Positions 27,673 through 43,515 of a stretch of DNA of 64,000 nucleotides are shown piece after piece. Position 1 is the first letter of the stretch; each line of letters opens with the position of its first letter. The DNA is from a virus. The position numbers and the translations under genes were made by a program. The notes beneath the pieces are model-generated. The model was not told the origin of the DNA. It saw nothing but the letters and a program-made list of their open reading frames with translations, and ran no database searches. The DNA lies in IMG/VR virus record IMGVR_UViG_3300011113_000621, positions 35,754-99,753 of that record, one strand, 5' to 3'.

Positions 27673-27719
27673 TTTGGCTCCTTTCCTGAGCTTGGTACTA
27701 TTATATCAGGTAGGTCAGG

Positions 27720-27846: not shown

Positions 27847-27858
27847 AGGACAATTATA

Positions 27859-28791: not shown

Positions 28792-29302
28792 TTAACTTCA
28801 ACTCCCTTAGATATTTCTCAAAGCTTGGATTTATCAAGACAGCGCTTGAGCGCTTTGTCCGCATTAACTCAATAGCTTGCTCAGCTGTATAGCCTTCAAG
28901 CATGAGAACAATTCCCATAGTTAAGCCAGATCTATTGATTCCAGCTTGACACCTAACAAGAACATTCTTGCCAGACTTCCACTGTTCGTGTGCGTATTTA
29001 GCCGCACGCATTAGTGCAGCCTCATCAAAGCTGGAGTTATCATCATAAAATCCGTAGCGAACTTCCTCGACAAACCAGTCAACAGGTCGTGCCCATGCAT
29101 AGAGCGTGACGACTACATCGAACTCTTTTTGTGTTATCTCACGAGTACCGTAAGGGTTTGCCACATAGTCAATCGTGTCAAAATCATCTGTACCACCAAG
29201 CCAAAGCCCTGAAAGGATCTCGCTCCATAGGGGAAAGTTCCAGTCAATTTCATGCTGCGGCGCAGCACCAAATTCCTCTGTACTATAAGTTGCCATTGTC
29301 AT
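28784..29302 (-). CDS. Dual-specificity/tyrosine protein phosphatase
   Basis: CX5R loop VLVRCQAGINRSG, EILSGLWLG, INPSF; start placed after the leader RBS. Confidence 0.88.
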   Translation of the reverse strand: MTMATYSTEEFGAAPQHEIDWNFPLWSEILSGLWLGGTDDFDTIDYVANPYGTREITQKEFDVVVTLYAWARPVDWFVEEVRYGFYDDNSSFDEAALMRAAKYAHEQWKSGKNVLVRCQAGINRSGLTMGIVLMLEGYTAEQAIELMRTKRSSAVLINPSFEKYLRELKLND

Positions 29303-29392
29303 GTGTCCTTTCGTATGGGTGGGCACCCTAGCAACCACTTGTTAGGGTTCCCACGGGTCTATTATATCAGGTTTGTAAACAACTCTAAAACA

Positions 29393-29468
29393 TGGAGCGG
29401 ACGACGGGGGTCGAACCCGCGACCTGAACCTTGGCAAGGTTCCGCGCTACCAACTGCGCTACGTCCGC
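29393..29468 (-). tRNA. tRNA-Gly (GCC), CCA encoded
   Basis: GCGGACG TA GCGC AGTTGGTA GCGC G GAACC TTGCCAA GGTTC AGGTC GCGGG TTCGACC CCCGT CGTCCGC TCCA; 76-nt cloverleaf. Confidence 0.97.
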
Positions 29469-30031
29469 TAGAACTTCTGGGACTTTATAATGATAGGTGC
29501 AGCTGAGTAAATATCCCACTTGATTGCAGCAGCTATCGCTTTTTTTATATTCTCTTCTGCTTGTTTCAGTGTCTTTGCTGGACCTAGAATCTCTAGAGCT
29601 CCAAGCACAACATCTCCTCCTGAACCACCGTAATAAACATTACGAACATCTCTGTCCCAAGAGTAGTCTTCAGAAATTGGATATATGACACCGCGCACTG
29701 CAATTAAAAACATCGAGTCATGCGCTGCCGCATCACCATCTTCCTTCATGTCATAACCAGCTTCAATAAAAGCTCGCCGCATCTCCGGGACAAACTTCTT
29801 AGTCATAAAGGAATCTAAGTTTTCTACGCTGTTAGGCGGTTTTGGTGGAGTCCAACCAAACTGAAGAATGTTAGATCCACGACTTGCACCAGCTCCAGCA
29901 ATTAGGTATGGTCCGTTTTCAATGACCTTATGAGTCGCCATTGTTGTGTATCGACCTGACTCTTCAGAAGCTCTAGAGTCACATCCAATAACACACCAAC
30001 CATTACCTTGTATTGCGGCAAGTGTAGTCAT
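29468..30031 (-). CDS. HslV/proteasome beta-subunit-like Ntn hydrolase
   Basis: Starts M-T-T (N-terminal Thr nucleophile), IGCDSR, K, GGSGG, AIKWDIYS. Confidence 0.8.
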   Translation of the reverse strand: MTTLAAIQGNGWCVIGCDSRASEESGRYTTMATHKVIENGPYLIAGAGASRGSNILQFGWTPPKPPNSVENLDSFMTKKFVPEMRRAFIEAGYDMKEDGDAAAHDSMFLIAVRGVIYPISEDYSWDRDVRNVYYGGSGGDVVLGALEILGPAKTLKQAEENIKKAIAAAIKWDIYSAAPIIIKSQKF

Positions 30032-30097
30032 AAACCTCTCCCTAAAACCCTGGTCACCTGGGGACAAATGTATCCCAGGTGAGAGGGCTACGTCTAA

Positions 30098-30427
30098 TTA
30101 CGCAGGGTCAATTATACTGAGAGGAACCGTAACATTTGAAGATTGAACCTCACCATTAGGAAGATACCTTGCAAACCTTCCTACCGGAGTTTCAAGTCTA
30201 ACCACAACCTTTGTGCGATTCTTTGAGATGATTTGAGCATATTGCCCAACCATATACCGCGTTCCGGTGAGTTCATTAAACCTAACTCTATCACCAACAC
30301 TAAAGTCGGTAATCTTCTTGTTCTTACGAACTTCACTCAGTCTATCTTTGGCAGCCTGTGTGATTTTGTCAAGTGAGTCATCAAATTTGCCTGAGGCTAT
30401 TTGACTCAATACTGTCTCAATATCCAT
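30098..30427 (-). CDS. Hypothetical protein (SH3-like C-terminus)
   Basis: FSVGDRVRF; own promoter variant and leader. Confidence 0.65.
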   Translation of the reverse strand: MDIETVLSQIASGKFDDSLDKITQAAKDRLSEVRKNKKITDFSVGDRVRFNELTGTRYMVGQYAQIISKNRTKVVVRLETPVGRFARYLPNGEVQSSNVTVPLSIIDPA

Positions 30428-30460
30428 GGTACCTTCCTTTCGTCGTTAAGTACTATTATA

Positions 30461-30646
30461 TCATACTTTTGACAGGAATGTAACATCTCCGGGGTAGAAT
30501 CTTTTCCCGTGAAGGTCATCAACCAGCTTTAAGGCAAGAGCTACCGCTGCTGTCTCACTGGAACTGATGACCTCGAGTTCACGAGTATCGTCACTTGTGT
30601 TTCTAGCATTAAGCTTTACCTTGTATCGGTAAGCTTTTGTCATCAA
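30461..30646 (-). CDS. Hypothetical protein
   Basis: Stop TGA lies within the next promoter motif. Confidence 0.6.
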   Translation of the reverse strand: MMTKAYRYKVKLNARNTSDDTRELEVISSSETAAVALALKLVDDLHGKRFYPGDVTFLSKV

Positions 30647-30891
30647 GCATCAACCTCAGCCTTGAGGTATTGAATGCCCTCAGATTTTTGTGCTTCGTCT
30701 TGTTCCCAAGGCAAACGTGTTCTATCAATATCAAGTAAGCTGTTGGTAAACATTACCGCAGTCTTCTTTGCAGCTCCCAATGTTGTATGGGCAGCATAAC
30801 GTTCCTCGCCTGATGCGAGGTCCTTTACCTTTACGAGCCACGCGGATTGCGGAGCTTTATTTTTGAGTAGAGTTGCTACTACACTCATCAT
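30643..30891 (-). CDS. Hypothetical protein
   Basis: Promoter motif at 30923-30935; RBS AGAGGA. Confidence 0.65.
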   Translation of the reverse strand: MMSVVATLLKNKAPQSAWLVKVKDLASGEERYAAHTTLGAAKKTAVMFTNSLLDIDRTRLPWEQDEAQKSEGIQYLKAEVDA

Positions 30892-30936
30892 TTCCTCTTT
30901 TCTTTGTCTTTGTGTTATAAACCTATTATATCAGGT

Positions 30937-31242
30937 TTAGTCATCATCCGAACTGGAGCGAGATCTTACCTTTTCCTGTTGGTCCCACATCTCTTCGCGA
31001 AGAGCACGTTCGTACTCATCACCGCGATACGAGTTAGAGCCAAAGGAGATATCCTCATCTTCATGAAGCTTATCTAAGCTAAGAACCGCAGTGTGCCCTG
31101 AAGCTGCAAACATGATTATGAGCTTTACGTCACCTTCATTTGCATCATCAACTAAAGCTACCGTAAAGGGAAGTCCTGCGACACCATTGCGATGATAAGC
31201 TAGATCAAGTATTTGTAATCTATCTGGGTCGATTCTTGTCAC
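30937..31242 (-). CDS. Hypothetical protein (YHRNGV motif)
   Basis: GTG start after GAAAGGAA RBS. Confidence 0.65.
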   Translation of the reverse strand: MTRIDPDRLQILDLAYHRNGVAGLPFTVALVDDANEGDVKLIIMFAASGHTAVLSLDKLHEDEDISFGSNSYRGDEYERALREEMWDQQEKVRSRSSSDDD

Positions 31243-31400
31243 GAGGCTTTCCTTTCAGCAGTACTTGGTCTTTTCTTTGTAATCGTGCAACCTTCAAGCT
31301 TTTGCTTTGCTATCCAGTCCTTAGCTGTTTTCTCGTCAGAGAACTGGCCTAGCCACTTGTCTCCTTGAAAGACGTTAACGAGTTTGTATAGATTACTCAT
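31239..31400 (-). CDS. Small hypothetical protein
   Basis: Manual ORF MSNLYKLVNVFQGDKWLGQFSDEKTAKDWIAKQKLEG... overlapping both neighbours by 4 nt. Confidence 0.65.
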   Translation of the reverse strand: MSNLYKLVNVFQGDKWLGQFSDEKTAKDWIAKQKLEGCTITKKRPSTAERKAS

Positions 31401-32038
31401 ATCGCAGCTCGATTCTTTTTAATAACTGGTTTGTAAGATCTACTGTTCCCACCAGTCTTCATGTATCCGTATCTTACGAGACGGAAGCGTAATGCTCCAT
31501 GAGTGACGCCAAGCTTCTTAGCAAGATGATAAAGCGTAACCTTTTGCTGGCTGTGAACTTTCCAAATAAGAGCCGCATACTCTTCAGCCTCCTCGCGATA
31601 CCTTGGAGAATGACTACGAACAAGTTGTGCAAAAGGTTGAAGCTCAAGTAGACGAGCTAAGTCCTTGGCATCTGGCTCGTAAGGTTCATATTTATACTTG
31701 ACAACTGTCTCTGTCGGAAGATTTGGAATTGGAAATTCCTCAGGAAACATCTTGATCTGTTCGATTAAGTCCTGGCCAATACTGACGTCAATTTGTCGAA
31801 TTCGTTCTCTAGTTAAGTCTGTTGCGTCCGCAATTGACTGTAGAGTCCAGCCCGCATGTCTTAGTGCAGCAATGTAGGAATTTCTTACCAAGGCATCACT
31901 CTCTTGATCTCTGTGAGGAGAGGCGCCAAATGACTTAAGGATAAGTCTAACGTTCTCAGGTAAAACCTGATTACTTACTACCGTATGAGTTTCCTCGGTG
32001 GCAACAAGCTTGCTAAAGTCTTTTCGTGTTTGTGTCAT
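31397..32038 (-). CDS. Double HTH DNA-binding protein (sigma70 region-4-like)
   Basis: GWTLQSIADATDLTRERIRQI and VTLYHLAKKLGVTHGALRFRL; leaderless start after TTTACT-17-TATAAT. Confidence 0.75.
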   Translation of the reverse strand: MTQTRKDFSKLVATEETHTVVSNQVLPENVRLILKSFGASPHRDQESDALVRNSYIAALRHAGWTLQSIADATDLTRERIRQIDVSIGQDLIEQIKMFPEEFPIPNLPTETVVKYKYEPYEPDAKDLARLLELQPFAQLVRSHSPRYREEAEEYAALIWKVHSQQKVTLYHLAKKLGVTHGALRFRLVRYGYMKTGGNSRSYKPVIKKNRAAI

Positions 32039-32073
32039 GGATATATTATATCATACTTTCTTTAGAAAGTAAA

Positions 32074-32109
32074 ATGGAGCTGGGCCACTTCTCCTTAGCC
32101 CAGCTCCAA
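32074..32109 (-). terminator. Intrinsic terminator
   Basis: TGGAGCTGGGC/GCCCAGCTCCA stem followed by TTTT on the minus strand. Confidence 0.7.
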
Positions 32110-32115
32110 GTGGTG

Positions 32116-32391
32116 CTACTTCTTAGGGAACTTCTTTTGTCCGCGTCTGATTGCAGACATGGTCATCGAAGCTTCCTTCGTGGTGTTTACCTGAATCTTC
32201 TCTCCTGTGGAGGTATTGAAGATCAGATAGTGTGAGCTATCCACCGCACGTAAAACCGCAAGGGTCTTACGCTTACGGAAGTAAGCTGGCTTGTAACCAT
32301 TTGGAAGTTTGACTCCGCGAGCCAAGGGAGGAAGCTGCTCTATGCGAGTTCCAGGCTTGGCACGAGCTGGAGATTTGATCTTCGCAGTCAT
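32116..32391 (-). CDS. Small basic protein
   Basis: Lys/Arg-rich; own promoter, leader and terminator. Confidence 0.7.
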   Translation of the reverse strand: MTAKIKSPARAKPGTRIEQLPPLARGVKLPNGYKPAYFRKRKTLAVLRAVDSSHYLIFNTSTGEKIQVNTTKEASMTMSAIRRGQKKFPKK

Positions 32392-32472
32392 GGTGTCCTT
32401 TCGTCTTTTATGAGCGCCTTGCTCATACTTGCTTATCTATTATATACAGATAAGGCAAATCTGTAAAACTAG

Positions 32473-32673
32473 TTAGGACAGGGCGAGTGGGTTACACTCG
32501 GGTAGAACGTGAGTTCTCCATTCACGGATAATCCTGTCAAAGGTATCCGTATACCCAAACTCCTTAGCTCGAAGGAGAATGGCGTAGTCCGCAAGGGACT
32601 CAGCCCAGACCTCTTCGTGGTCCTTTGAGTTTTGAGCGGAGCAGCTTACGCAGAAATCTTGTTTTGTTTCCAC
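32473..32673 (-). CDS. Hypothetical protein
   Basis: 66-aa ORF with a CxxC pair. Confidence 0.5.
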   Translation of the reverse strand: METKQDFCVSCSAQNSKDHEEVWAESLADYAILLRAKEFGYTDTFDRIIREWRTHVLPECNPLALS

Positions 32674-32771
32674 GACTGGTCCTTGATCTTTTGTTGTAGC
32701 TCGCGATTTGGCACGAGCGCCAGAAGAACTAAACCAAGCTCTTCCTCGGTAAGTGTAATTGTGTATTCCAT
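32646..32771 (-). CDS. Small hypothetical protein (MEYTITLTEEELGLVLLAL...)
   Basis: Start re-assigned downstream of the promoter motif and AAGGAGAGG RBS. Confidence 0.6.
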   Translation of the reverse strand: MEYTITLTEEELGLVLLALVPNRELQQKIKDQSWKQNKISA

Positions 32772-32799
32772 GAGAGTCCTCTCCTTTTGTACTATTATA

Positions 32800-32970
32800 T
32801 CAGGAACGACCGCAAGTTTGCTCTTCTTTTTGGAGAAGAGCTTTAGCCGCGCTGAGGTGTAGATCGCAGGAAGATACCGCACTCGTGATCTGACGCTGGC
32901 TTGATACTCCAGAGCAGACCGCACAATAAGAGACGTGGGTTGCTTTTTTAGAACAGTAGTGGCAAATCAA
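32800..32970 (-). CDS. Small Cys-rich protein
   Basis: TTG start after AGGAGG; stop inside the promoter motif. Confidence 0.55.
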   Translation of the reverse strand: MICHYCSKKATHVSYCAVCSGVSSQRQITSAVSSCDLHLSAAKALLQKEEQTCGRS

Positions 32971-33347
32971 CTTTGAGCCTCCTCTTGCACATCTCCGTAG
33001 GCTTTGCATGTGTCAACTAAGTCTTCAACAAATGACTTAAAAGACATAGGTCCAGCTCCGGCACGTTTAGCTACTACTTCCTCGGCAGTCTTCATGTCAG
33101 CATTTTTAATTAAATGATACAAATGAATGAGATCAGATTTAGAGACCGAATATGGACTAAAGACAAAGTCATCGGATTTCCGCTGTGTCGATTCGGGTTG
33201 TGGTTCGATGCCAGCATACACCGACTCTACGAAATCAAAATCATGAAAATCATCACGAATCTTTGTATAGGCGTAATTCGCATACTCTACATAAGCTTTA
33301 GCAAGCGCCTCCTCGATTCCTACAACTTGTTCTTGTTCGTTACTCAC
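32967..33347 (-). CDS. Hypothetical protein
   Basis: GTG start after AGGAGG. Confidence 0.65.
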   Translation of the reverse strand: MSNEQEQVVGIEEALAKAYVEYANYAYTKIRDDFHDFDFVESVYAGIEPQPESTQRKSDDFVFSPYSVSKSDLIHLYHLIKNADMKTAEEVVAKRAGAGPMSFKSFVEDLVDTCKAYGDVQEEAQS

Positions 33348-33522
33348 TTTGAGCCTCCTCTAACTTACTGAGGAATAACTCGATGTCCTTCTTGATGAAG
33401 TAGAAAGCATTACCGCATGAATAACAATACGCCTCAGTCATTGGGATCTCTCGGCAAAATGCGTCGATACCCGAGTGAATCAGGTCGGTGTTATCGCAAC
33501 CTTGCACTTGGCATTTCTTCAT
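33340..33522 (-). CDS. Small zinc-finger-like protein
   Basis: CQVQGC...CYSC; leader motif upstream. Confidence 0.65.
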   Translation of the reverse strand: MKKCQVQGCDNTDLIHSGIDAFCREIPMTEAYCYSCGNAFYFIKKDIELFLSKLEEAQSE

Positions 33523-33643
33523 TTTCGTCCTTTCGTCGTTTGATTTGGCAGCTCAGAGGACTTACCGCAGACGACCGCTGTAGTGAGCGATGTTCCGCGT
33601 GCCCCTGAACTGTTAGTACTATTATATCAGGTTTGGAGTGAGA

Positions 33644-33670
33644 AGGTACCCTACTCACAAGTAGGGTACC
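33644..33670 (-). terminator. Stem-loop
   Basis: GGTACCCTACT/AGTAGGGTACC perfect 11-bp stem after the 33683 ORF. Confidence 0.6.
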
Positions 33671-33682
33671 CGCAACTTGATT

Positions 33683-34126
33683 TTAGTTTAGTGGGTATGA
33701 ATTAAGGAAGAACTCTTGAAGATCTTTATCAATCCACCAACCTCGGTAGAAGACTAAGGGAGAGTCATCTGTCATTAGAAGATCATCAAAATACATTTGA
33801 GTGCCTTCTGGTTCTTCATCTAGACTAAAAACTGCTATGTGGTCTACACCTTCAATTTCTATGTATAAACCCGCATCAATAAAGTGGTATGAGTTATCTG
33901 GGTATCTGAATGTTAAGATCTGGCCATCTGCACTTACTTCAACAACCTCTGCTTGATCTATCTTTACTGATGGATCAATTGGTGTACTCTGGAACATGGA
34001 CTGTTTTTCTATCCACATTCTTAGAGGTTGTGTTTTTGAGTTTTTGAAGATTTCATGTATCTTCTGTGAAGGTGTGAGGGTGGTGTCCTCGGAAACCTTC
34101 TTTATGTATTCATATGTTGGATACAT
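33683..34126 (-). CDS. Hypothetical protein
   Basis: Promoter TTTACT-17-TATAAT and GGAAAGGA RBS. Confidence 0.7.
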   Translation of the reverse strand: MYPTYEYIKKVSEDTTLTPSQKIHEIFKNSKTQPLRMWIEKQSMFQSTPIDPSVKIDQAEVVEVSADGQILTFRYPDNSYHFIDAGLYIEIEGVDHIAVFSLDEEPEGTQMYFDDLLMTDDSPLVFYRGWWIDKDLQEFFLNSYPLN

Positions 34127-34184
34127 TCATTTTCCTTTCCTTTGGTTAGTATCTATTATAACATAATAGAAAGGAAAAGTAAAC

Positions 34185-34397
34185 TCAGGGTGTGAACTCC
34201 AACATTGCCTTTGCCCAGCTTGCCAGCTTGGGTTCAAACTTGTTTTTGTGGTGGCCGCATAGGTATAGGTCGCCGGAGTCACCGGAGATCTTCCAAAGGG
34301 CGCGAGCAACGCGGCACGCATCACATTGGACATACTCGGAGAAGGTCGAAGGCTCTAAGGGAGCCTGAGCTTCAAGCACCGCACCTGTCTCACTCAC
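34185..34397 (-). CDS. Small zinc-binding protein (CDAC...LCGHH)
   Basis: Same CxxC...CxxH pattern as 58776-58982. Confidence 0.6.
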   Translation of the reverse strand: MSETGAVLEAQAPLEPSTFSEYVQCDACRVARALWKISGDSGDLYLCGHHKNKFEPKLASWAKAMLEFTP

Positions 34398-34401
34398 GAG
34401 A

Positions 34402-34725
34402 TTACTTTATCACGTGAGAGAGATGATTAAGAGCTTCAGTCACGAGATTTGTTACCTCAAAACTGTCTCCTCCGATATGCCACTCATAAAGCTCATTTAA
34501 CCCAGGTCTTCCGAACTCGTATCGCTTCCAATCGTAGATGGTTGCGATTTCTCCGGAGTCAAATTGAATTATCCACTGCGTAGTGACTTTGTCACCCATT
34601 GAGAAAAACTGTGGATCTCCGAAAACCTCGGTAAGTTTTTCACGAGTCGTTTGTACATATCCCCGCAGTGATGTGCCATTGGCATTGATCTCTGAGTCTG
34701 CGAAAAAATTATCTCCGAACTTCAT
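34402..34725 (-). CDS. Hypothetical phage protein (TIYDWK motif)
   Basis: GTSLRGY...FGDP...KVTTQW...TIYDWK...WHIGG; start after AAGGAGG. Confidence 0.7.
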   Translation of the reverse strand: MKFGDNFFADSEINANGTSLRGYVQTTREKLTEVFGDPQFFSMGDKVTTQWIIQFDSGEIATIYDWKRYEFGRPGLNELYEWHIGGDSFEVTNLVTEALNHLSHVIK

Positions 34726-34735
34726 TTCATCCTCC

Positions 34736-34975
34736 TTAAGCTGAGAAAGCGAGAACGTAACCTTTATCCTGCTTTTCCCAAATTCTTTTGTTAGCGGCAA
34801 AGAGTGCTGCTTGCTCGTTTGAGAAGAGCTCAGTCTTCATTTGGCGATTACGCTTTTCAGCCATTCCCCAAAATACAGTCATACGATTTCCAATGACTTC
34901 AATTTCATACATCTTCTTCTTACCAATGAGTCCGCGATTTCCATCGCTCTCTTTTATTAGGCACCAGCGTTTCAT
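34736..34975 (-). CDS. WGR-domain-like protein
   Basis: KMYEIEVIGNRMTVFWG...EKQDKGY pattern; start after promoter plus leader. Confidence 0.65.
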   Translation of the reverse strand: MKRWCLIKESDGNRGLIGKKKMYEIEVIGNRMTVFWGMAEKRNRQMKTELFSNEQAALFAANKRIWEKQDKGYVLAFSA

Positions 34976-35015
34976 TTTTATCCTTTCGTCGTTTAGTACT
35001 ATTATATCAGGAAGA

Positions 35016-35312
35016 TTAACAGAAGCAAACTCCAGTTTTGGATGGAATTGTGTGGCAAATTGAGCAGAACAGTATTTCTGCTTTTGGTTGGTTTGATTTC
35101 TTTTGAACATTGGCTAGACCAAGTTCAATTAGTTTTGAAGATACAGAGTAGTAAGAGCGATTTAATTGGACCGCAATTTCTCTGATTGATTTATTAAGAC
35201 CTTTAAGAGTCTCAAGAGTGCGGATGTCAGAATGTAGCCATTCTTCATTCGCGCGGGTCGCTGTGACCAATGTGAAGCTTTGGGCTTCTCTCGTCCATTC
35301 CATTGCGTTCAT
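35016..35312 (-). CDS. HTH protein with C-terminal Cys cluster
   Basis: SIREIAVQLNRSYYSVSSKL; CSICHTIPSKTGVCFC. Confidence 0.65.
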   Translation of the reverse strand: MNAMEWTREAQSFTLVTATRANEEWLHSDIRTLETLKGLNKSIREIAVQLNRSYYSVSSKLIELGLANVQKKSNQPKAEILFCSICHTIPSKTGVCFC

Positions 35313-35415
35313 TTAGGGTGTCCTTTCGTCGTTATGGAACTATTATATCAGGTTTAGAGCGAACTCGTAAACTTTTATAAAGTAAAGGCGCCTTTCGGCG
35401 CCCTATCTCTAACTT

Positions 35416-35601
35416 TTAAACGTCAAGAGACTCTGGTTCCAATTCCAAGTCCCAAGAAGCATCGGGCCAACTTAAGTCGTGTTTCGTAGAGTCTACTTTT
35501 CCTAGTTCACTTAAGTGAGCATTTAATTTTGCTTCCGCTTGGTCGTAGCTTTCTGCTTCAACCTCGCCAGCCAGCTTTATTACAAATGAATAGGTTTTCA
35601 T
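35416..35601 (-). CDS. Small acidic protein
   Basis: MKTYSFVIKLAGEVEAESYDQAE...; own promoter, leader and downstream hairpin at 35385-35402. Confidence 0.7.
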   Translation of the reverse strand: MKTYSFVIKLAGEVEAESYDQAEAKLNAHLSELGKVDSTKHDLSWPDASWDLELEPESLDV

Positions 35602-35647
35602 TTTCGTCCTTTCGTCGTTTGGTACTATTATAACATATACCCGTCTA

Positions 35648-35916
35648 AAAGTAAACAAGCCAGCCCGAAGGCTGGCCTGTTTACGGACTAGCAGATTTTC
35701 AACTCGGAATTACGGTACCGCGCCTGATTCCAGTTTGCGCACCCGTGTCGATGTTGCTACGGAGTTTTTACCGAGGCTAGCTTTGCTATTACCGAGGCTG
35801 AGATACTTATATCTGCTTCGTTTCCTAGACCGCATAAACGTCAGCTTTTCGGGAGTAGTGTCCCCACGGGATACCCTTACGCTCCAAGGTCTAGTAAGTC
35901 CTCTATATTTAGTTGT
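35648..35916 (-). ncRNA. Candidate structured non-coding RNA (about 270 nt)
   Basis: Own promoter motif (35918-35933) and C(UUCG)G terminator (35651-35684); no RBS-led ORF; nested stems GGACT/AGTCC, CTAGACC/GGTCTAG, AGCAGAT/ATCTGCT. Confidence 0.6.
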
Positions 35917-35928
35917 GGTGCTATTATA

Positions 35929-36126
35929 TCAGGAAGATGGTGTGTCTTCCCAGTCCGTCAGGTAGCGAGCTTCAAAATCAGAGGCTGGCCTTTTGAGTCC
36001 AAGCTCCGCCATCTTTAGGTAGCGGTCAACGTCTGCTCGCTTGCGGGCTCTGAACTTTGAGATTCTTTCGCCCGTCTTGACATCTATAATTTCCCACACG
36101 CCTGCTGCAACATTGCGATTACGCAT
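35929..36126 (-). CDS. Hypothetical protein
   Basis: MRNRNVAAGVWEIIDVKTGE...; stop inside the promoter motif. Confidence 0.6.
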   Translation of the reverse strand: MRNRNVAAGVWEIIDVKTGERISKFRARKRADVDRYLKMAELGLKRPASDFEARYLTDWEDTPSS

Positions 36127-36469
36127 ACACTTGCCGTCTGACTCTTTCGGCAAACTCCTGGAGCTGCACAACCCAAGCGTGTGAAAGCTCTATGGTCTCG
36201 CCTTCTTCGTCCGTGCCGCCTGTAAATACACAGTCACCCACGATTACGTCGGTTTGTCCAAAGGAGCGTTCCCACATGTGCGTGCTGATGAGATTCACCG
36301 GTAAGCCAATGAGCTTGCCTTCATCATTGCACCAAAGTGTAAGATCTGGCTTCAAGCTTACCGCTTGAATTAGTCCACCTACCGTGCCTGAAAGCTGATT
36401 GTACTCGTCGGTGGAAAGATCAAGTACCTCGGTTGTTAAGTCTGTGTTTACTCGTAGTGCTGTTTTCAT
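36119..36469 (-). CDS. DUF3846-like protein
   Basis: VGGLIQAV...LWCNDEGKLIGLPVN...DVIVGDCVFTG..DEEG. Confidence 0.75.
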   Translation of the reverse strand: MKTALRVNTDLTTEVLDLSTDEYNQLSGTVGGLIQAVSLKPDLTLWCNDEGKLIGLPVNLISTHMWERSFGQTDVIVGDCVFTGGTDEEGETIELSHAWVVQLQEFAERVRRQVYA

Positions 36470-36648
36470 TTAGCTAACTCCACTTCTGGAAACCACTTCA
36501 ATAAAGTTTGAAGTAGGTGGTCGTAGTCGCCTGCAGTCATTTCCGCAGTAAACGTGGCAACCTCATCGCGGCGCCCTTGCTTTTCTAACTCACGGCGTCC
36601 TGCGCCAATTATAGCGAAGGCATTGCCATCTGTAATACTAATTGCCAT
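36466..36648 (-). CDS. Small phage protein (DGNAFAIIG...GDYDHLL)
   Basis: Start after ACGAAAGGACACCC leader. Confidence 0.7.
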   Translation of the reverse strand: MAISITDGNAFAIIGAGRRELEKQGRRDEVATFTAEMTAGDYDHLLQTLLKWFPEVELAK

Positions 36649-36668
36649 TGGGTGTCCTTTCGTAGATT

Positions 36669-36803
36669 CTAACCCTTGTGCCAACAGGTGCAGCCGCAAG
36701 GAAATGACGAGCCATTATTTCTTGGGCAGTAGTCGTGTTCATCCTCTGTGCAAGAACCGCACTTAGGATGCACCACTGTCTTGCCTTCAAGTTTAATTTC
36801 CAT
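36669..36803 (-). CDS. Small Cys/His-rich protein (leaderless)
   Basis: ATG 7 nt after TATAAT; CGSC...H..C...CGCTCWH. Confidence 0.6.
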   Translation of the reverse strand: MEIKLEGKTVVHPKCGSCTEDEHDYCPRNNGSSFPCGCTCWHKG

Positions 36804-36816
36804 AGGTACTATTATA

Positions 36817-37068
36817 TCAGGAAGAGTGTGGATATTGCAGACCTCGTGAAGCAAGTCTTTCACCAGCTTCATTTAGTGACGTGATAATTTCAAACACGTC
36901 CATTCCGGTGTCCCAGCTATCAAACATTGAAACTGCTAGGTCCCAGTGTTCATTGGTGTATTCCTCACCTGTGTTGCTTTCAACGTCTTCTTTTGTGAAC
37001 CATTGAACCATAATCTCTGAGTTTGGGTCCTCCTGTTGGAGAGCCGCAAGTACTGTTGATACTTTCAT
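36817..37068 (-). CDS. Acidic hypothetical protein
   Basis: Promoter plus leader upstream; stop inside the next motif. Confidence 0.7.
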   Translation of the reverse strand: MKVSTVLAALQQEDPNSEIMVQWFTKEDVESNTGEEYTNEHWDLAVSMFDSWDTGMDVFEIITSLNEAGERLASRGLQYPHSS

Positions 37069-37114
37069 TGGATGTCCTTTCGTCGTTGTTGGTACTATTA
37101 TATCAGGAAGAACG

Positions 37115-37255
37115 TTATTCCTGAACTACTGGCTCTAGCTTATGTGCGTCTACACAACTAAAGCACACAGGATAGTTGAATCGGTAATCAAAGGTATCAT
37201 CACTAAAGTTGCCTAAACACTTCTCGCAGTAAGTTAAGTCGCGCATTTGGTTCAT
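37115..37255 (-). CDS. Small zinc-finger-like protein
   Basis: Manual ORF MNQMRDLTYCEKCLG...VCFSCVDAHKLEPVVQE. Confidence 0.55.
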   Translation of the reverse strand: MNQMRDLTYCEKCLGNFSDDTFDYRFNYPVCFSCVDAHKLEPVVQE

Positions 37256-37470
37256 CCTACTTGGAGTAGCTCATTACAAAGTCCGCACCAATACGAATCT
37301 CCGAGCACACTTGACTCGTCATACTCGTGAAGTATTTCTTCAGTAGGGTGTTTGCAGTCATTTACAATAGGGTTTCCAAAGTACGTGCCCATAACTTGTT
37401 CGTGGGTTGGTTCCTTGCCTTCAGGCATTGAGTACGCCAACATTTCCATTCTTTCAACATAACCGCGCAT
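37252..37470 (-). CDS. Hypothetical protein
   Basis: Promoter plus leader; CKH...CGLC. Confidence 0.65.
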   Translation of the reverse strand: MRGYVERMEMLAYSMPEGKEPTHEQVMGTYFGNPIVNDCKHPTEEILHEYDESSVLGDSYWCGLCNELLQVG

Positions 37471-37502
37471 TAGATTTCCTTTCCGTCGTTGGTACTATTA
37501 TA

Positions 37503-37703
37503 TCAGGAATCGAGTACGCTCGCAAGATCTTCGTAAAGATTTTCTATTACCGTGCCGTGTTCCATTATGGTCTGCTCGAACTTGTCGTCCAGGTCTGAGG
37601 CACCCGCTGGAATCTTGTCGGTGCGCATTACGTAAATGACATCTCCTGGAGACATAAGCCACCAGTCACCATTCTCGTTGGCTACATATAAATTACTCAT
37701 CAT
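37503..37703 (-). CDS. Hypothetical protein
   Basis: Stop inside the promoter motif. Confidence 0.6.
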   Translation of the reverse strand: MMSNLYVANENGDWWLMSPGDVIYVMRTDKIPAGASDLDDKFEQTIMEHGTVIENLYEDLASVLDS

Positions 37704-37866
37704 CTTGTCCTAGAGGATAAAGATAGTTGCCAAGGTCAATGCCGCAACCAGTTTTGATGACAACCTCGCCGGAGTCATCTACAATTACCGTCGAGCCGTT
37801 TAGTCTTTCATTTACCCATTCCCTTAGGTGTTCTAAGGTTTGCAGGTCTGCAACTTTAAGTTCCAT
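37693..37866 (-). CDS. Small hypothetical protein
   Basis: Manual ORF MELKVADLQTLEHLREWVNERLNGSTVIVDDSGEVVIKTG... after the leader motif. Confidence 0.65.
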   Translation of the reverse strand: MELKVADLQTLEHLREWVNERLNGSTVIVDDSGEVVIKTGCGIDLGNYLYPLGQDDE

Positions 37867-37978
37867 GTTTGTCCTTTCGTCGTTTAGGCAACCAGTGGAA
37901 GAAAGTCTGGCGGTTGCTAGATGCTGTGCTACCTAGCTTCCGCGGTTTCATGTCCACCGGTTGTTAGTATCTATTATA

Positions 37979-38884
37979 TCAGGAATTGGAGACCGAATAC
38001 AGCTTATCCACAACCTCTTTGAGTGAGATATACGCTTTGCCAAGGTTTTGGGTCAGGCTAGCCAAGGTCCCGCCTTGTGAGAGGGACTGAGCGGTCTTGG
38101 TCGCCACGGCAACCGCCGCGTTGCTAGTGCCAAGTGTTAAGAGCTTGCGACCCGTCAAGTCCTGGGTCGTCCAGCGCCCGTGAGCATAAAGGTCAAGGTC
38201 TTGCCCGCCGTTGCTTGAAGGCATCACCGGAGTGACCCAACCGGTCACGCCGCGCATGCTATAACGAACGTCCGTCGCACCAACGGAAATAACTTCAGGG
38301 GTACAGGCTGGGTAATCAACCTTAAGTTTGTTTCCACCATTACCAGCGGAAGCTACAACTCCGATGCCTGCGCCCGTCAACTTCCGAACTGTTGCCTGGA
38401 AGCTAGCTTCGATGGGGCATCCCACTTCCGTGTAGGAACGACCTACGGATAGTGAAACGGCTCCGACGTTTAGTCGGGCTGCATTCGAATCTACCCAGTC
38501 CATTGCCTGTTGAACCGAACGCATGGTGTAGCTATTGGCAAAGCCTTTGGCGGACATGCCGACAATACGAATAAACACAACACGAACGTTTGGGTCAACC
38601 TGCACAGCTACGGAATACATCTGTGACCCGTGATGCATTGCCTTGTCCTTTACGTCCTGGTATCGCACATGAGCTGCGCCTGGCCCGTTCATAAACTTTT
38701 GTCCATTAGGGCACGTGCCGTATTCGATGATGCACACTTCCTCAACGAGAGTTGACTTGACCCAGTCAAGCTCGGTGTTAACTCCGGAGTCGATAATCAC
38801 CAACGTCTTTTGTGTGTTGGCACTTGCTGGTACCGCAAGCAGAGAGGCTGCAAGGGCAAGTATAAGTAGTAGTTTAGTTTTCAT
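37979..38884 (-). CDS. Secreted subtilisin-like S8 peptidase
   Basis: Signal peptide; catalytic IIDSG, HHGSQM, ASAGN oxyanion, GTSNA. Confidence 0.88.
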   Translation of the reverse strand: MKTKLLLILALAASLLAVPASANTQKTLVIIDSGVNTELDWVKSTLVEEVCIIEYGTCPNGQKFMNGPGAAHVRYQDVKDKAMHHGSQMYSVAVQVDPNVRVVFIRIVGMSAKGFANSYTMRSVQQAMDWVDSNAARLNVGAVSLSVGRSYTEVGCPIEASFQATVRKLTGAGIGVVASAGNGGNKLKVDYPACTPEVISVGATDVRYSMRGVTGWVTPVMPSSNGGQDLDLYAHGRWTTQDLTGRKLLTLGTSNAAVAVATKTAQSLSQGGTLASLTQNLGKAYISLKEVVDKLYSVSNS

Positions 38885-39011
38885 TGTCGTTACGTCCTTT
38901 GTGTTTGTTCTTGCGGGTATACTTTCTTTTGTTCCTTACGGGTAGGGAAGCGGAGGAACGACGAAGTTCGAGTAGCCTTCTAAGCTGCTCTGCAGTTTTG
39001 CTTAGCTTCAT
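38874..39011 (-). CDS. Small basic protein
   Basis: MKLSKTAEQLRRLLELRRSSASLPVRNKRKYTRKNKHK; AAGGAGG RBS. Confidence 0.65.
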   Translation of the reverse strand: MKLSKTAEQLRRLLELRRSSASLPVRNKRKYTRKNKHKGRNDNEN

Positions 39012-39022
39012 CGTTCCTCCTT

Positions 39023-39048
39023 TGTTGCTCTTTGACGGAAGGGCAACA
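39023..39048 (-). promoter_or_regulatory. Hairpin after VWA gene; loop antisense to that gene's leader
   Basis: Minus strand TGTTGCCC-TTCCGTCAAA-GAGCAACA; plus-strand tgacggaagg (39033-39042) is identical to the VWA leader (reverse complement of 40856-40865). Confidence 0.6.
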
Positions 39049-39051
39049 TCT

Positions 39052-40848
39052 TTAAGCAGCGTTCTTGCTGCCAATCTTTGTAAGTGCGTTTGCCGCAGCA
39101 GTACCAATTCTGATTGCCGCGTCTGCAGGATCCATGACGTCGGAGAGTAGAACTGTGTTCGTGCCTCGTGTAAGTTCCATTGCATCATGTAGATACGGAC
39201 TCCTACAGAATGGTAACCACAGAACTGCAACGCCTTTGTCATCGCATTCCTTAAGCCAATATTTAGCGCGTTCAGTCTCAACGGAAGTGTAGCGTGCGTC
39301 ACTTACTACTACGAGCAAGCGTGCACCATTTCCATAGAGCAAGTTTAAAGAACCATCAAGTGCCTTAAACGCCTTATCGAACTTCTCAGTTGAATCAGGC
39401 GCAGTGTACACATTGATCTGATCAAGATGTTGCCCTGGCTTTAGAGTAGGAAACACGTCCTGCCCAAAGTAAACCATTGCCGCACGAGCTTGAACTCGAC
39501 GTGCTGCCTCTGACATTGCCCAGGCAGTGACTGCCATAGGGTTCATGGCACTGCCCATTGAACCTGAGATATCAACCATGACACCAATACTTAGTGTTGG
39601 GTCATCAGTGTGCTTGCGCACAGTGCGACGCCATGGATTGGCTACCTGCATTGAACCTTGAGCTTTATACGCAGCATTTTGTACAATGGCACGAGTGCGT
39701 AAACGTCCAGGTGGAAGTATGGACTGAATCTCGTGTTCATCACGCTCACGATACTTTGCTTTCTCAAGCATCTGTGCAATCTTGACTGCGGCAGCTCTTT
39801 CGTTCGCCTCAGGTTTACGAATCTTCTCAAGACGAGAGTTGCTGCCATTAGTGTTGCCTGCCTCAGAAGTATTCTTGAATATCTCTTCTGCGATCTTTTT
39901 GTGCTCACGATCTTGGCGGGCAGCCTTTGAGCGAACTTCTACCTCTTGCTTCCACTCCTCAGATTGCTGTTGGTCCTGAGCATCATCTGCCACAGCGATG
40001 GCAATCATGTCAATCGCATCTTCGATTTCCTTGATGATGTCGCTAATCACGGCTTGGATGATCTGCATATCTGTTGGCTTATCAAGTTCTTCGCCACGCT
40101 CGTTTGCAAGGTCACGTAGAATCTTATCCCACTCACGAGCAAGATTGTATAGAGGCAGAGGGTTAAGCGCATTTTCAATACCTTGGAAACGACGCCATAC
40201 ACTTTGCAACTTTTCAAATGTATCCGCACCTAGAAAGTCAATGACAACTGTGTTGATGCCAACGACATCATCTGCGTCAAGTGAACCTGCGTCAACGCGG
40301 GCACTCAATAGGGCAGCAATTGTTGCGATTGATCTGATGTTATCTGCCTTCTCGATATTCTCATTTATGTCGTGAAGTACAAGGTCAAGTGCACAGGAGC
40401 GAAGAAAGATCCTGTTCATTGGAAAGTTAGTGACGCCAAGGCGCTCAATGCGAGTTTCCTCAAGAGACATGAAGGCATTAAACTCACTAGGAGTCAATTC
40501 CTTACTTGCCATTGACAAGTCCATCTTTGAGTAGCGAGCGTGTAGTGCCTCATGAAAGATGGCACCTGCTGCCTTTGGCCAGTTAAATAGTGAATCGCGA
40601 TCTAAAAGATCACCAATGCTTGAAGGGGAAACTCCCTTACCGAATGATAAGTCTACATTGACCTCAACCTCAGATAGGGCTGGGTTAAAGCATGCAGGGG
40701 TTGGACCTCCTGCGCCTGGTCCTACGTAGGCAACGATGTCTGAGCGTCCTGCCCAGGTGTTTACCAAGGAGCCAATCTGAGCTCCGACCGGCAGCCATTC
40801 GGCTGGGGTCTGTTCCGCGCGGGTCGCGGATACCTTTATATGTCCCAT
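39052..40848 (-). CDS. VWA-domain protein with N-terminal HExxH (CobT/MoxR-partner-like)
   Basis: FHEALHA...LEETRIE; MIDAS VDISGSM; VVVSD. Confidence 0.85.
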   Translation of the reverse strand: MGHIKVSATRAEQTPAEWLPVGAQIGSLVNTWAGRSDIVAYVGPGAGGPTPACFNPALSEVEVNVDLSFGKGVSPSSIGDLLDRDSLFNWPKAAGAIFHEALHARYSKMDLSMASKELTPSEFNAFMSLEETRIERLGVTNFPMNRIFLRSCALDLVLHDINENIEKADNIRSIATIAALLSARVDAGSLDADDVVGINTVVIDFLGADTFEKLQSVWRRFQGIENALNPLPLYNLAREWDKILRDLANERGEELDKPTDMQIIQAVISDIIKEIEDAIDMIAIAVADDAQDQQQSEEWKQEVEVRSKAARQDREHKKIAEEIFKNTSEAGNTNGSNSRLEKIRKPEANERAAAVKIAQMLEKAKYRERDEHEIQSILPPGRLRTRAIVQNAAYKAQGSMQVANPWRRTVRKHTDDPTLSIGVMVDISGSMGSAMNPMAVTAWAMSEAARRVQARAAMVYFGQDVFPTLKPGQHLDQINVYTAPDSTEKFDKAFKALDGSLNLLYGNGARLLVVVSDARYTSVETERAKYWLKECDDKGVAVLWLPFCRSPYLHDAMELTRGTNTVLLSDVMDPADAAIRIGTAAANALTKIGSKNAA

Positions 40849-40880
40849 AGTTTGTCCTTCCGTCAGTAGGTACTATTATA

Positions 40881-41423
40881 TCAGGTTTTCTGGGACTTTA
40901 GAACCCTTCTTTTTGCCGCGAGAGACATTTTCTTTCTAGTCTCTTCTGAGAAAGTTCTTCCCTTTTGCGACTCAGATATTCTTTTCTTAGTCTCTAAAGA
41001 GTGCTTTCTTCCAACCCACACCTGCCGTAGGTTTTCTAAGTGCTCTGCAGTAAACTGTTTACCAGTGTGAGAAGCACTTAGCTTACTTCTATACTTTGCA
41101 GATCTAACTACGCCTACTGAGCCTTCGCCTCCATCTGTCATATTTGTTAGATCATACCCCTCTAACTTAAATTTTTTAATGTAGTAAACTTCTCTTGTGC
41201 CAGACTCTTCCCAAGACAGATTATTTTCTAAAACTGTAATAACTATGTTTGACCCGATGGAACGTACTTGCCGTATCCAGTTATACACATGGTAAGGCTT
41301 ATCTTTTTTAGCATTCCAAAGATGATCCTTTAAGCGTTTAATCGACTCTTCATGCTTCGATCTTCCTACATACCTGATAACCTCAGGTGAATCACTAGAA
41401 GATAGAGTATAGACGATAGCCAC
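40881..41423 (-). mobile_element. Free-standing GIY-YIG homing endonuclease with NUMOD3 repeats
   Basis: IVYTL...RYVGRS...R...H, E..YI, LTNMTDGGEG, then HSLETKKRISESQKG and FSEETRKKMS; lower GC than flanks; leaderless GTG 6 nt after TATAAT. Confidence 0.88.
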
Positions 41424-41444
41424 AAATAAATTATATTACAGAAT

Positions 41445-41545
41445 AATTATGGTGAGAAGAGCAGGACACCCATGACCTGCTCTTCTCCACGCGCCCAGGG
41501 GATTAGTCTGGGTCTATCCGAGCAACGACGAGCTCGGAAGGTTTA
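41445..41545 (-). promoter_or_regulatory. Three-hairpin 3' element/terminator after the AAA+ gene with anti-leader loops
   Basis: TCCGAGC-TCGTCGTT-GCTCGGA; CCCAG-ACTAATCCC-CTGGG; GAGAAGAGCAGG-TCATGGGTGT-CCTGCTCTTCTC. Confidence 0.7.
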
Positions 41546-42541
41546 TTAGATTTTGGCCGGACGGCATTCCTCGCCGTAGACTCTGGTAAAGACGTCTGCG
41601 ACTACTGGCCTGTCTAACTCAGGTGCAGCGGCAATTATGTTCGCGATTGCGAACTTAGTGCCGAAGGTTTTAGAGATATCGCGGAACGCGAGTAGCTCAC
41701 GCATTTGTGGTGCCCAACCGCATTCACCAGATTGTTGGCGACGTGATAGGTTTTGAGCAACTACAACTATCTGTTGTGGCGCTCCAAGCTTTTTAGCAAG
41801 CATGAAGTCAGTTGACATCTCAACTTGAAGTACGAAGCGAGATAGTAAAGCTTCTGAAAGTCTTACTCCAGGAGCGTTTGGATTTGTAGCAGCGATGACA
41901 TAGAAGCCTTCCTTGGCTTTGATGGTACCGCGCTCTGGATTGGCAGTGATAGTTAACTCATTAGTTCCATCCATGAGTGAATAGACACCTGAGAGAACCT
42001 TTGGATCGATGAGACCAATCTCATCAATGAACAGTGGGCGACCTTCCTCGGCAGCTTTTACAAGTGGACCATCTTCCCAGGTGAAACCACCTGAAGGAGT
42101 TTGGACGTATCCACCAATGAAGTCTGCAAGTTCAGCGTCACCTGTACCAAGTACAGAGATCACATTTGGAAATGCTGCCTGCACAAGCGCAGTCTTACCA
42201 CAACCAGGAGCACCATAGAGCAAGATGAATTGCATCTCTTGATGCGCCTTACGTAGAACTTGCACGTCATCGTGCTCGCCCCACTTGCGGGCATGGTACT
42301 TCTCGCCATTAGGGCGCATGTATGTCTCGTCACCGACGAGTGCATCTGCTGACACTACAGGGACCACCTTCTTGACTGTTGCACGAACGGCAACCTTACC
42401 CTGAGGTGTAACCATTGATTTAAGTTCAGAGGACACATCTTCATTGAGATGCTGACCTGCTGCCTTTAAGAATAGATCGCTAAGTTTAGGTGACGCACCT
42501 GGCGCCATTGAATCTAACTTATCTAATACTACTGTTGACAT
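41546..42541 (-). CDS. MoxR-family AAA+ ATPase (CbbQ/NirQ/NorQ/CobS-like)
   Basis: Walker A GAPGCGKT, WEDGPL, Walker B LFIDE, AATNP, SEALLSRF. Confidence 0.92.
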   Translation of the reverse strand: MSTVVLDKLDSMAPGASPKLSDLFLKAAGQHLNEDVSSELKSMVTPQGKVAVRATVKKVVPVVSADALVGDETYMRPNGEKYHARKWGEHDDVQVLRKAHQEMQFILLYGAPGCGKTALVQAAFPNVISVLGTGDAELADFIGGYVQTPSGGFTWEDGPLVKAAEEGRPLFIDEIGLIDPKVLSGVYSLMDGTNELTITANPERGTIKAKEGFYVIAATNPNAPGVRLSEALLSRFVLQVEMSTDFMLAKKLGAPQQIVVVAQNLSRRQQSGECGWAPQMRELLAFRDISKTFGTKFAIANIIAAAPELDRPVVADVFTRVYGEECRPAKI

Positions 42542-42568
42542 GTGGGTGTTTTCCTTTCGTCGTTGTTG

Positions 42569-43024
42569 TTAAGCGAATAACTTATCGCCGAAGCCTAAGG
42601 CTTTGCGAACACGGGTGATGCGACCTAGAACCTTGTAAGGGGTTCTTGAGTTGCGGATGTCTTCGAGATCTGCCAGTGATACCTCAACCACGAGTGGCTG
42701 CTTGAATAACTTATAACTGTGACTCTCAAGACGTGAGACTATAGTCTCAAGAAATGCTAGGCGAGACTCTGTAACTGATTTAGTATCCTCAAGAGAATAC
42801 TTTTTGAAGTTTCCGAACTCATCCTTTGCAAGAACTGGAAGCGCATATGTCTTCCACCCCCTGCGTGGGTGAAGGCTGGAAATTTGGCGGCGATACATCG
42901 TAGCGGGTACGTTGCGACCATCGCTGGTAAGCCCATCTGGAGTTAGAAGCATTTGGTATGTTTGAACACCAAGGCGAAACTCCATGTATAAGGCACTACC
43001 TATAACCTTGTCTTTATCCAACAT
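42569..43024 (-). CDS. Hypothetical protein co-transcribed with the AAA+ ATPase
   Basis: Promoter plus leader upstream; no promoter between it and the ATPase gene. Confidence 0.7.
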   Translation of the reverse strand: MLDKDKVIGSALYMEFRLGVQTYQMLLTPDGLTSDGRNVPATMYRRQISSLHPRRGWKTYALPVLAKDEFGNFKKYSLEDTKSVTESRLAFLETIVSRLESHSYKLFKQPLVVEVSLADLEDIRNSRTPYKVLGRITRVRKALGFGDKLFA

Positions 43025-43059
43025 GGGTGTATCCTTTCGTCGTTTGAAGTACTATTATA

Positions 43060-43248
43060 TCAGGAACGTAGGTCCTGAATGAAACTTGTTAGAGCGTCAG
43101 TGACCGCGTCACCGAGGTAGGCATTGAGTTCATCAAGTTGCTCTTGAGTAAGCTCTTCGATTTCTTCCTCATCGTTCATATAGTTGACCATGTCAATAAG
43201 GTCACCGAACGTGAGCTTGAACTCGTAGACTATTGAGTCGTTGTTCAT
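43060..43248 (-). CDS. Small acidic protein
   Basis: Very D/E-rich; promoter plus leader; stop inside the next motif. Confidence 0.7.
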   Translation of the reverse strand: MNNDSIVYEFKLTFGDLIDMVNYMNDEEEIEELTQEQLDELNAYLGDAVTDALTSFIQDLRS

Positions 43249-43299
43249 TGGGCATCCTTTCGTCGTTTGGAAATACTATTATATCAGGTATAAGCTTTA

Positions 43300-43382
43300 G
43301 AGATACGCAGGGGACCGGAATTGTTTCCGACCCTCTAGAGTCTTAAGTCGTTCAGGTGACCACCGGGTCGACCCTGCGTATA
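43300..43382 (-). ncRNA. Candidate small RNA between two promoter motifs
   Basis: Closing stem ATACGCAGGG/CCCTGCGTAT starts at the predicted TSS; internal CGGAA/TTCCG; no ORF or RBS. Confidence 0.5.
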
Positions 43383-43515
43383 GTACTATTATATCAGGTT
43401 AGAAGCGTACTCGCGAGTAATATAGGGTTTTGCTATTCCTATATACCTGATATAATAGATACCACGGGAAACCAGCCGGCCAACCGAAGACACAGAGACG
43501 AAGGGTAGGGACCAA

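Follow-up and report, generated by a model that had tools for sequence, protein, structure and literature searches.

Why do two of the three hairpins that follow an AAA+ ATPase gene in a phage expose, in their loops, the complement of the leaders from which the gene's own operon is translated, and what would such loops pair with? The window analysed here is a stretch of 64,000 nt from the record of a ~99.7-kb uncultured phage that is related to Actinomycetia phage DSL-LC01 (lake water). The operon lies on the minus strand, in the order promoter motif, leader, 151-aa gene and AAA+ ATPase gene, with the following elements:

43054-43064, minus strand: promoter motif CCTGATATAAT (extended -10) of the two-gene operon (151-aa gene and AAA+ gene), its function taken from the consensus alone.
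43022-43044, minus strand: leader of gene 43024, full form AACGACGAAAGGAUACACCCAUG, with AACGACGA at 43037-43044, the SD AAGGA, and ACACCCAUG at 43022-43030, which includes the start codon.
42569-43024, minus strand: 151-aa gene (ORF), first cistron of the operon.
42539-42564, minus strand: leader of the AAA+ gene, AACGACGAAAGGAAAACACCCACAUG, without a promoter of its own, with AACGACGA at 42557-42564, an SD, ACACCCA at 42543-42549 and the AUG.
41546-42541, minus strand: AAA+ ATPase (AAA_5; CobS/MoxR-like; Pfam E = 2.6e-17; PHROG 16448 and 249, E = 7.6e-57).
41546-41548, minus strand: stop codon of the AAA+ gene.

The CCTGATATAAT motif precedes most leader cassettes. Pfam and PHROG profile searches gave no match for the 151-aa gene and placed it in no known family. 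Directly past the AAA+ stop codon, the sense strand can form three hairpins:

41517-41538, minus strand: hairpin B (hairpin 1 of the first-pass annotation), 7-bp stem UCCGAGC/GCUCGGA, loop UCGUCGUU at 41524-41531, antisense to AACGACGA.
41494-41512, minus strand: hairpin 2, stem CCCAG/CUGGG, with a relic stop codon TAA (41503-41505) in the loop.
41454-41487, minus strand: hairpin A (hairpin 3 of that annotation), 12-bp GC-rich stem, loop UCAUGGGUGU at 41466-41475, antisense to ACACCCAUGA.

Folding of 41424-41560 with RNAfold gave these three hairpins at -45.1 kcal/mol (z = -3.7), and none of 200 shuffled sequences was equally stable. The first-pass annotation had described the loop of hairpin B as complementary to the 5' half of the leader and that of hairpin A as complementary to the half from RBS to start codon. 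Both descriptions were accurate: loop B is the exact complement of AACGACGA, and loop A that of ACACCCAUG, extending to ACACCCAUG(A), in leaders of the same two-gene operon. The leaders that the annotation had quoted for genes 43024, 42541, 35312 and 36648 were also exact. In the leader of gene 43024, AACGACGA is the target of loop B and ACACCCAUG that of loop A. Target B ends 1 nt 5' of the SD AAGGA, and target A comprises the spacer and AUG of gene 43024 and the spacer of gene 42541. The two loops sit 8-92 nt past the AAA+ stop, no strong hairpin lies between targets and loops, and loops and both target leaders would share one transcript unit downstream of one promoter motif. Since targets and loops are in parallel order in the window, one continuous duplex is impossible. 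RNAfold also closes the pairs CA/UG within loop A, so that a UGGG tetraloop alone stays open, which counts against its pairing with the leaders. An Rfam search of 40500-43500 with E values up to 10 returned chance matches only, the best being mir-627 with 26 bits against a gathering score of 86.

The motif AACGACGA has 15 copies in the window, against 1.6 expected. Twelve lie on the minus strand; all but one of these (11/12) read AACGACGAAAGG before a start codon, all within 27057-43267, and a plus-strand copy, at 41524, is loop B itself. The minus strand has eight 7-mers complementary to loop A, and four of these (43030, 42549, 36655 and 29322) fall in RBS regions, which make up ~2% of the sequence. 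The 11 AACGACGAAAGG leaders match loop B, while the leaders of genes 36648 and 29302 match loop A. The earlier claim that the loops are antisense to a phage-wide motif thus stands for loop B; loop A has its target in four or five leaders, the best of them in its own operon. When duplex energies with loops A and B were summed for 55 candidate leaders, that of gene 43024 ranked first at -25.6 kcal/mol (-10.9 with loop B and -14.7 with loop A, the best of the 55), and that of gene 42541 was joint second at -21.9 kcal/mol, tied with gene 35312. Duplex energies of the loops alone were used because RNAcofold is unable to represent loop-loop (pseudoknotted) complexes; its values for leaders with the 3' UTR (ddG -1.5 to -5.6 kcal/mol, with controls no worse) are blind to them.

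A search of viral contigs with the AAA+ protein yielded 80 related loci at 55-100% identity, and 51 distinct related contigs and their loops were compared. A long GC-rich hairpin occupies the same position in most of the 80 loci, past the AAA+ stop codon and before the promoter of a VWA/CobT-like gene, which in the window reads as follows:

40836-40885, minus strand: promoter CCTGATATAAT (40875-40885) and variant leader CUACUGACGGAAGGAC of the VWA/CobT-like gene, not targeted by loops A or B.

When the hairpins were aligned with MAFFT, the stems of hairpin A had no sequence common to different clades, and the loop alone was conserved. The GG of the aligned loop is invariant and the flanking T's are nearly so, giving a core T(G/A)GGT. 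The comparison with the related locus L010 is the simplest case: the AAA+ proteins are identical and so are the 10-nt loops of hairpin A, whereas the stems are wholly different. Because loop lengths differ by 1-6 nt, no single consensus structure fits all rows, and stems were scored per sequence. In 60 distinct hairpins there were 591 Watson-Crick pairs, and the isolated non-Watson-Crick pairs were 29 G.U (read on the gene strand), 1 A.C and 11 others. This excess of G.U over A.C indicates that the selected structure is the sense-strand RNA (or single strand). The first-pass annotation had named stems kept with randomised loops as the pattern that would speak against it; the opposite was seen, with stems that vary and loops that are either kept or change together with the leaders.

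The reverse complement of each phage's loop recurs beside the SD or start codon of the phage's own genes, and the word differs between clades:

L038, six leaders: loop GUAGGUG, leader word CACCUAC.
L031, L037 and L039: loop GUAGGUUG, leader word CAACCUAC.
L052: loop GUAGUGGGU, leader word ACCCACUAC.
L046: loop UGUGGUGG, leader word CCACCACA.
L048: loop UGGUAGGU, leader word ACCUACCA.
L019, L021 and L024: loop CAUUGGGUG, leader word CACCCAAUG.
L014: loop GUAUGGGUG, leader word CACCCAUA.
L022: loop UGGCUGGU, leader word ACCAGCCA.
L056: loop GUCGUCC, leader word GGACGAC.
L025: loop UUUGGGU, leader word ACCCAAA.

With the 51 distinct loops, a loop complement of at least 7 nt was present in 13.5% of own-locus leaders, against 3.6% when loops were permuted (none of 20000 permutations was as high), and reversed and same-sense controls gave a match of at least 7 nt in 0.3% of leaders. 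A 12 x 12 matrix of specificity groups had a mean match of 7.9 nt on the diagonal and 5.0 nt off it. The switch between UGGGU and UAGGU loops was concordant with that between ACCCA and ACCUA leaders in 24 of 24 cases, yet the AAA+ tree shows just one such event, so that a tree-aware sign test, with one independent pair only, has no power. At the finer level of 6-mers there were 1-4 changes per word, and for 26 of 37 locus-by-6-mer incidences the complement was present in own-operon leaders. Since relatedness inflates the counts and the main switch is one tree event, the data amount to about ten independent co-changes, not fifty. Targets border on or overlap with the SD or AUG also where no promoter precedes them, the AAA+ leader being an example. 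The covariation of loop and leader in related contigs that the first-pass annotation had suggested looking for is therefore present across 51 distinct contigs, with one event behind its main switch. This pattern, as read from the aligned loci, suggests that loop-leader pairing is maintained by compensatory change. The clade-specific change of partner also argues for a phage-encoded partner, over mimicry of 16S rRNA or the SD-likeness (AGGUG/GGGUG) of the loop.

Pairing could take place within the message or with other genes, and the distribution of matches bears on this. Of 84 leaders that belong to the AAA+ gene or to its preceding gene, 31 contain a complement of hairpin A of at least 7 nt, against 32 of 346 other leaders at the same loci. 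In L010, matches within 9 kb are confined to the own-operon leaders. Across the relatives, loop A most consistently matches the leader of the AAA+ gene itself; in the most distant ones, the match moves to the first gene of the operon, and no loop match was found in the AAA+ leader itself of the distant relatives L055, L060, L083 and L087. The loop-A word is a general leader motif in several clades, for example in L038, L052 and L046, where it occurs at 5-6 genes within 9 kb, and cis and trans action are therefore inseparable there.

A second pair of this kind is found at the VWA/CobT-like gene. Its 3' UTR (39023-39052) has a small hairpin whose loop includes CCUUCCGUCA, the exact complement of the gene's private leader variant UGACGGAAGG, and a 3' UTR sequence of at least 7 nt antisense to the own leader is present in 31 of 51 loci (14 nt in one). 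Other 3' hairpins of the early region (43891, 35676, 33670, 32108, 27760, 27134 and 25576) had no convincing anti-own-leader loop; with no convincing case among these seven, the design seems limited to the AAA+ and VWA genes. Together, the own-operon preference and the private VWA pair favour pairing within one message. The idea of the first-pass annotation that the 3' UTR kisses its own 5' leaders gains support from the same preference and from the first and joint second ranks of the operon's leaders among the 55 candidates.

A further candidate partner of loop A was the 5' terminus of the cobT-like message downstream (ACCUAC past the -10 box), which we rejected: a match of at least 7 nt was found in 2 of 47 cobT-like leaders, fewer than in unrelated leaders. 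Separately, the sequence ACCUUCC directly past the AAA+ stop (41538-41545) is complementary to GGAAGG, the SD variant of the cobT-like gene, and not to the common leader. Words resembling CCUUUCC occur at the same spot in several other clades; for L045, a duplex of 17 bp with the cobT RBS is predicted.

Between hairpin A and the cobT-like promoter stands a further gene:

40881-41423, minus strand: GIY-YIG/NUMOD3 homing endonuclease gene, 180 aa (Pfam NUMOD3, 3.8e-7; PHROG 314, 1.5e-14).
41430-41458, minus strand: promoter of the endonuclease gene, TTCTCA, 17 nt, TATAAT (promoter scan 10/12).

The -35 element TTCTCA falls within the 3' arm of hairpin A, and the GTG start codon follows 6 nt past TATAAT with no SD; the message is probably leaderless, judging by this spacing. 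Leaderless messages are common in actinobacteria. At the other end (40881-40885), the TGA stop of the ORF belongs to the next CCTGATATAAT promoter motif.

The closest relatives, L010 and L011, have neither hairpin B nor the endonuclease gene, and hairpin B is thus dispensable. Compared with L010, the AAA+ gene has 22 nucleotide differences and no amino acid difference, and 18 of the 22, all silent, fall in the last 73 nt; the last ~75 nt of the gene (41546-41621) are synonymously recoded. This clustering at the gene end indicates that a block, 40886-41621 (~735 bp), was replaced as a unit. It holds, in order, the recoded gene end, hairpin B, a relic gene end (with its stop in hairpin 2), hairpin A with a new stem, and the endonuclease gene. 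The layout resembles that of a tract formed by homing or co-conversion, with an allele immune to cleavage, and the comparison with the closest relatives indicates that hairpin B came in with it. L016 has a homologous endonuclease, with hairpin B and a relic gene end located after it. Four metatranscriptomes were searched. A 4-kb contig from them, possibly derived from DNA, represents an endonuclease-less relative that skips 40885-41545 and has 52 other letters there; short contigs cover just coding parts of the two genes, and all of these are assembled contigs with possible DNA carry-over.

Loops of the hairpin B type, (UUUC)UUCGUCGUU(UC), are found on unrelated stems in L025, L049-51 (two copies), L076 (two copies), L016 and L087. 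Those of L025, L049-51, L076 and L087 occur without the endonuclease, and there they match AACGACGAA(G) leaders. In two of three larger genomes that were searched, G002 and G003, the anti-leader B site occurs once, behind the AAA+ gene; the third, G004, has a second match on the same strand at 90819.

The relic in hairpin 2 relates to another conserved element. In 28 of 53 relatives, the last AAA+ codons (Ala-Lys-Ile) pair with a complement of at least 6 nt located at most 28 nt downstream, forming a "stop-codon hairpin". Its arms have changed by compensatory synonymous pairs: GCCAAG/CTTGGC, GCTAAGA/TCTTAGC, GCGAAGAT/ATCTTCGC, GCAAGAA/TTCTTGC and others. Hairpin 2 of the window, by its likeness to these, is a relic of the conserved stop-codon hairpin around the old stop, and the remnant resembles the gene end of L010. 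A terminating ribosome could open the stop-codon hairpin and thereby possibly gate the neighbouring loops.

Our preferred reading, which we consider probable on this comparative evidence, is that the 3' tail of the message for the 151-aa gene and the AAA+ ATPase pairs by kissing loops with its own translation-initiation regions, in the manner of icaR, and probably represses them; pairing in vivo and the direction of the effect are both inferred. Loop B would pair with AACGACGA just 5' of the SD, and loop A with ACACCCAUG, that is, with the spacer and start codon. The two targets would thus flank the SD of both cistrons, inside the footprint of the 30S subunit. Kissing by either loop would hinder initiation, leading to less ribosome loading and possibly creating an RNase target, as in icaR (initiation is also blocked by distant anti-SD-like 8-mers, PMC12697547); a stabilising role, as in hbs, would be the alternative effect of pairing. 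Many early genes appear to be driven by one strong cassette of promoter and leader, and a 3' anti-leader would lower the expression of this enzyme pair, acting as a gene-specific brake. In addition, stable 3' fragments might act in trans on further messages that bear the leader.

Action in trans may also be the main function. A small RNA derived from the 3' UTR, resembling c4 of P1/P7 or CI of P4, would then accumulate after transcription of the AAA+ operon and silence or time the leader-bearing early genes by pairing beside the SD. The 11 leaders that match loop B, the spread of the loop-A complement as a general leader motif over 5-6 genes within 9 kb in L038, L052 and L046, and the single anti-leader site in G002 and G003 (G004 having its further same-strand match at 90819), as expected of one regulator locus, are all in line with such an RNA, to which the long GC stems would give a stable end. 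However, the match is four times commoner in own-operon leaders than in others, the matches of L010 do not extend beyond its own operon within 9 kb, and a shared trans regulator does not explain why the VWA gene has both a private leader and a private anti-leader. We regard this as a serious but doubtful alternative. The motif might instead be bound by a phage protein, as a dsDNA operator or as a site on RNA, and occur in both orientations, with loop and leader covarying because both follow the specificity of that protein. Many targets are located shortly past the -10 box, where operators typically sit, and hairpins bound by proteins, such as boxB, are likewise marked by a conserved loop on a stem that varies. 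Yet the antisense copy is always at the apex of a long hairpin, which dsDNA recognition does not need; the targets hold a fixed relation to the SD and AUG even without a promoter; and the G.U asymmetry shows selection on RNA structure. A protein that binds ssRNA would see different sequences in loop and leader, since these are complements and not copies of each other, as reflected in the 0.3% of the same-sense control. A protein site therefore appears improbable to us.

The hairpins could also be ordinary terminators or 3'-end stabilisers, with complementarity that arose by chance or from an inverted duplication. Their position between a stop codon and the next promoter suits this function, the hairpin of L010 is followed by a U-rich tail, and the original motif search was post hoc. 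The tails of endonuclease-less relatives are U-richer (e.g., UUUCCUCUUUUCC), and many clades have no U tail; in the window, hairpin A with its tail ACCAUAAUUAUUC was not scored as terminator-like in a terminator scan, and the other terminator-like hairpins have unrelated loops, such as UUCG, UUUC and UUGUGA. Conserved loops on stems that turn over, clade-specific co-change and own-operon preference would not be expected of plain terminators, and we find this explanation highly improbable. The first-pass annotation had also offered a plus-strand transcript that displays leader-like motifs in its loops as a CsrB-like decoy, which would attract a factor that binds leaders. Read on the plus strand, hairpin B has a T-rich tail behind it and a terminator-like score, and loop A reads AGGACACCCAUGA, which looks like an RBS plus start codon. 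The stem wobbles, however, form G.U pairs 29 times on the minus strand and only once on the plus strand, an asymmetry that disfavours the decoy; the RBS-like context is absent from L010 and from clades without ATG in the loop complement, as is the 25-codon ORF that starts with the ATG at 41472, which we rejected as a plus-strand small gene for this lack of conservation; and no phage-type plus-strand promoter is located nearby. The decoy is scarcely credible on these grounds.

A wider version of the kissing-loop reading can be put forward tentatively, and we hold it to be rather unlikely as a whole. The phages of this lake actinophage family would use an addressable RNA code, in which short, variable "address" words by the SD of standard promoter-and-leader cassettes are read by 3' hairpin loops in cis and in trans for gene-specific translation. 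Loops imported by homing-endonuclease blocks, hairpin B for example, would retune the recipient operon, and the stop-codon hairpin would gate the loops, resulting in a translation-sensing feedback.

The principle of pairing between 3' and 5' UTRs is known. In Staphylococcus aureus, the 3' UTR of the icaR mRNA contains an anti-RBS motif that pairs with the SD region of the same mRNA, blocks the initiation complex and makes a substrate for RNase III (PMC3868564). The likeness lies in a complementary motif in the 3' UTR of the mRNA that carries the target RBS; in contrast to icaR, the phage message has two hairpin loops, which would kiss and flank rather than cover the SD, and it is bicistronic, with two RBSs. 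The phage case also rests on family-wide evolutionary covariation, whereas that of icaR rests on experiments. In the hbs mRNA of B. subtilis, a 14-bp duplex of the 5' and 3' UTRs modulates cleavage by RNase Y and stabilises the message (PMC5737220); this is likewise a long-range pairing of both UTRs of one bacterial mRNA, but the phage targets are RBS-proximal. Experiments have shown that anti-SD-like 8-mers hundreds of nucleotides downstream can pair with an RBS, promote decay and block initiation (PMC12697547). Those elements are pyrimidine-rich mimics of the anti-SD and are generally selected against, whereas the phage elements are selected for, are presented in loops and recognise the flanks of the leader rather than the SD core.

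Among phage and plasmid systems, the antisense RNAs c4 of P1/P7 and CI of P4 originate, by processing, upstream of their targets and serve immunity in trans, and the specificities of P1 and P7 differ by sequences that changed together. The hok mRNA folds back by linear pairing of its 5' and 3' ends (fbi-tac), and the 3' site sib of lambda controls the upstream gene via RNase III and not by RBS pairing. These systems resemble the hairpins described here in that short loop or 3'-end sequences pair with complementary sites near an RBS on transcripts of the same element, or in 3' control, but there is no sequence or structural homology. Experimental cases of 3'-5' UTR pairing in bacteria number a handful, including icaR and hbs, and to our knowledge none has such comparative support and none is from a phage. 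What is new is the phage setting, the bipartite kissing-loop layout, the two-cistron target, the family-wide covariation and a loop that was acquired with a homing-endonuclease block.

A related concept is found in cluster K mycobacteriophages, in which the SAS/ESAS, a conserved motif that contains the RBS, stands before a subset of genes and has no known function (PMC3203893). Like the leader described here, the SAS is repeated, includes the RBS and belongs to actinobacteriophages; the sequences are unrelated, and no antisense partner has been described for the SAS. The K1 phages Adephagia, Angelica and CrimD have a single SAS copy each on the complementary strand (PMC3203893, Fig. S3 legend), and by analogy with the hairpin loops this copy could be an anti-SAS. 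If confirmed, our finding would suggest looking for a partner of these unexplained start-associated sequences.

This abundant freshwater phage family offers about ten natural compensatory-mutation experiments on one element, with a second example in the partner gene, and the targets are short, defined and portable, so that direct reporter tests would be easy. If the preferred reading is true, loop and leader pairs of this family would be a source of orthogonal parts for synthetic biology, and the AAA+ operon would show how a phage with one uniform strong expression cassette gives single genes their own set-point.
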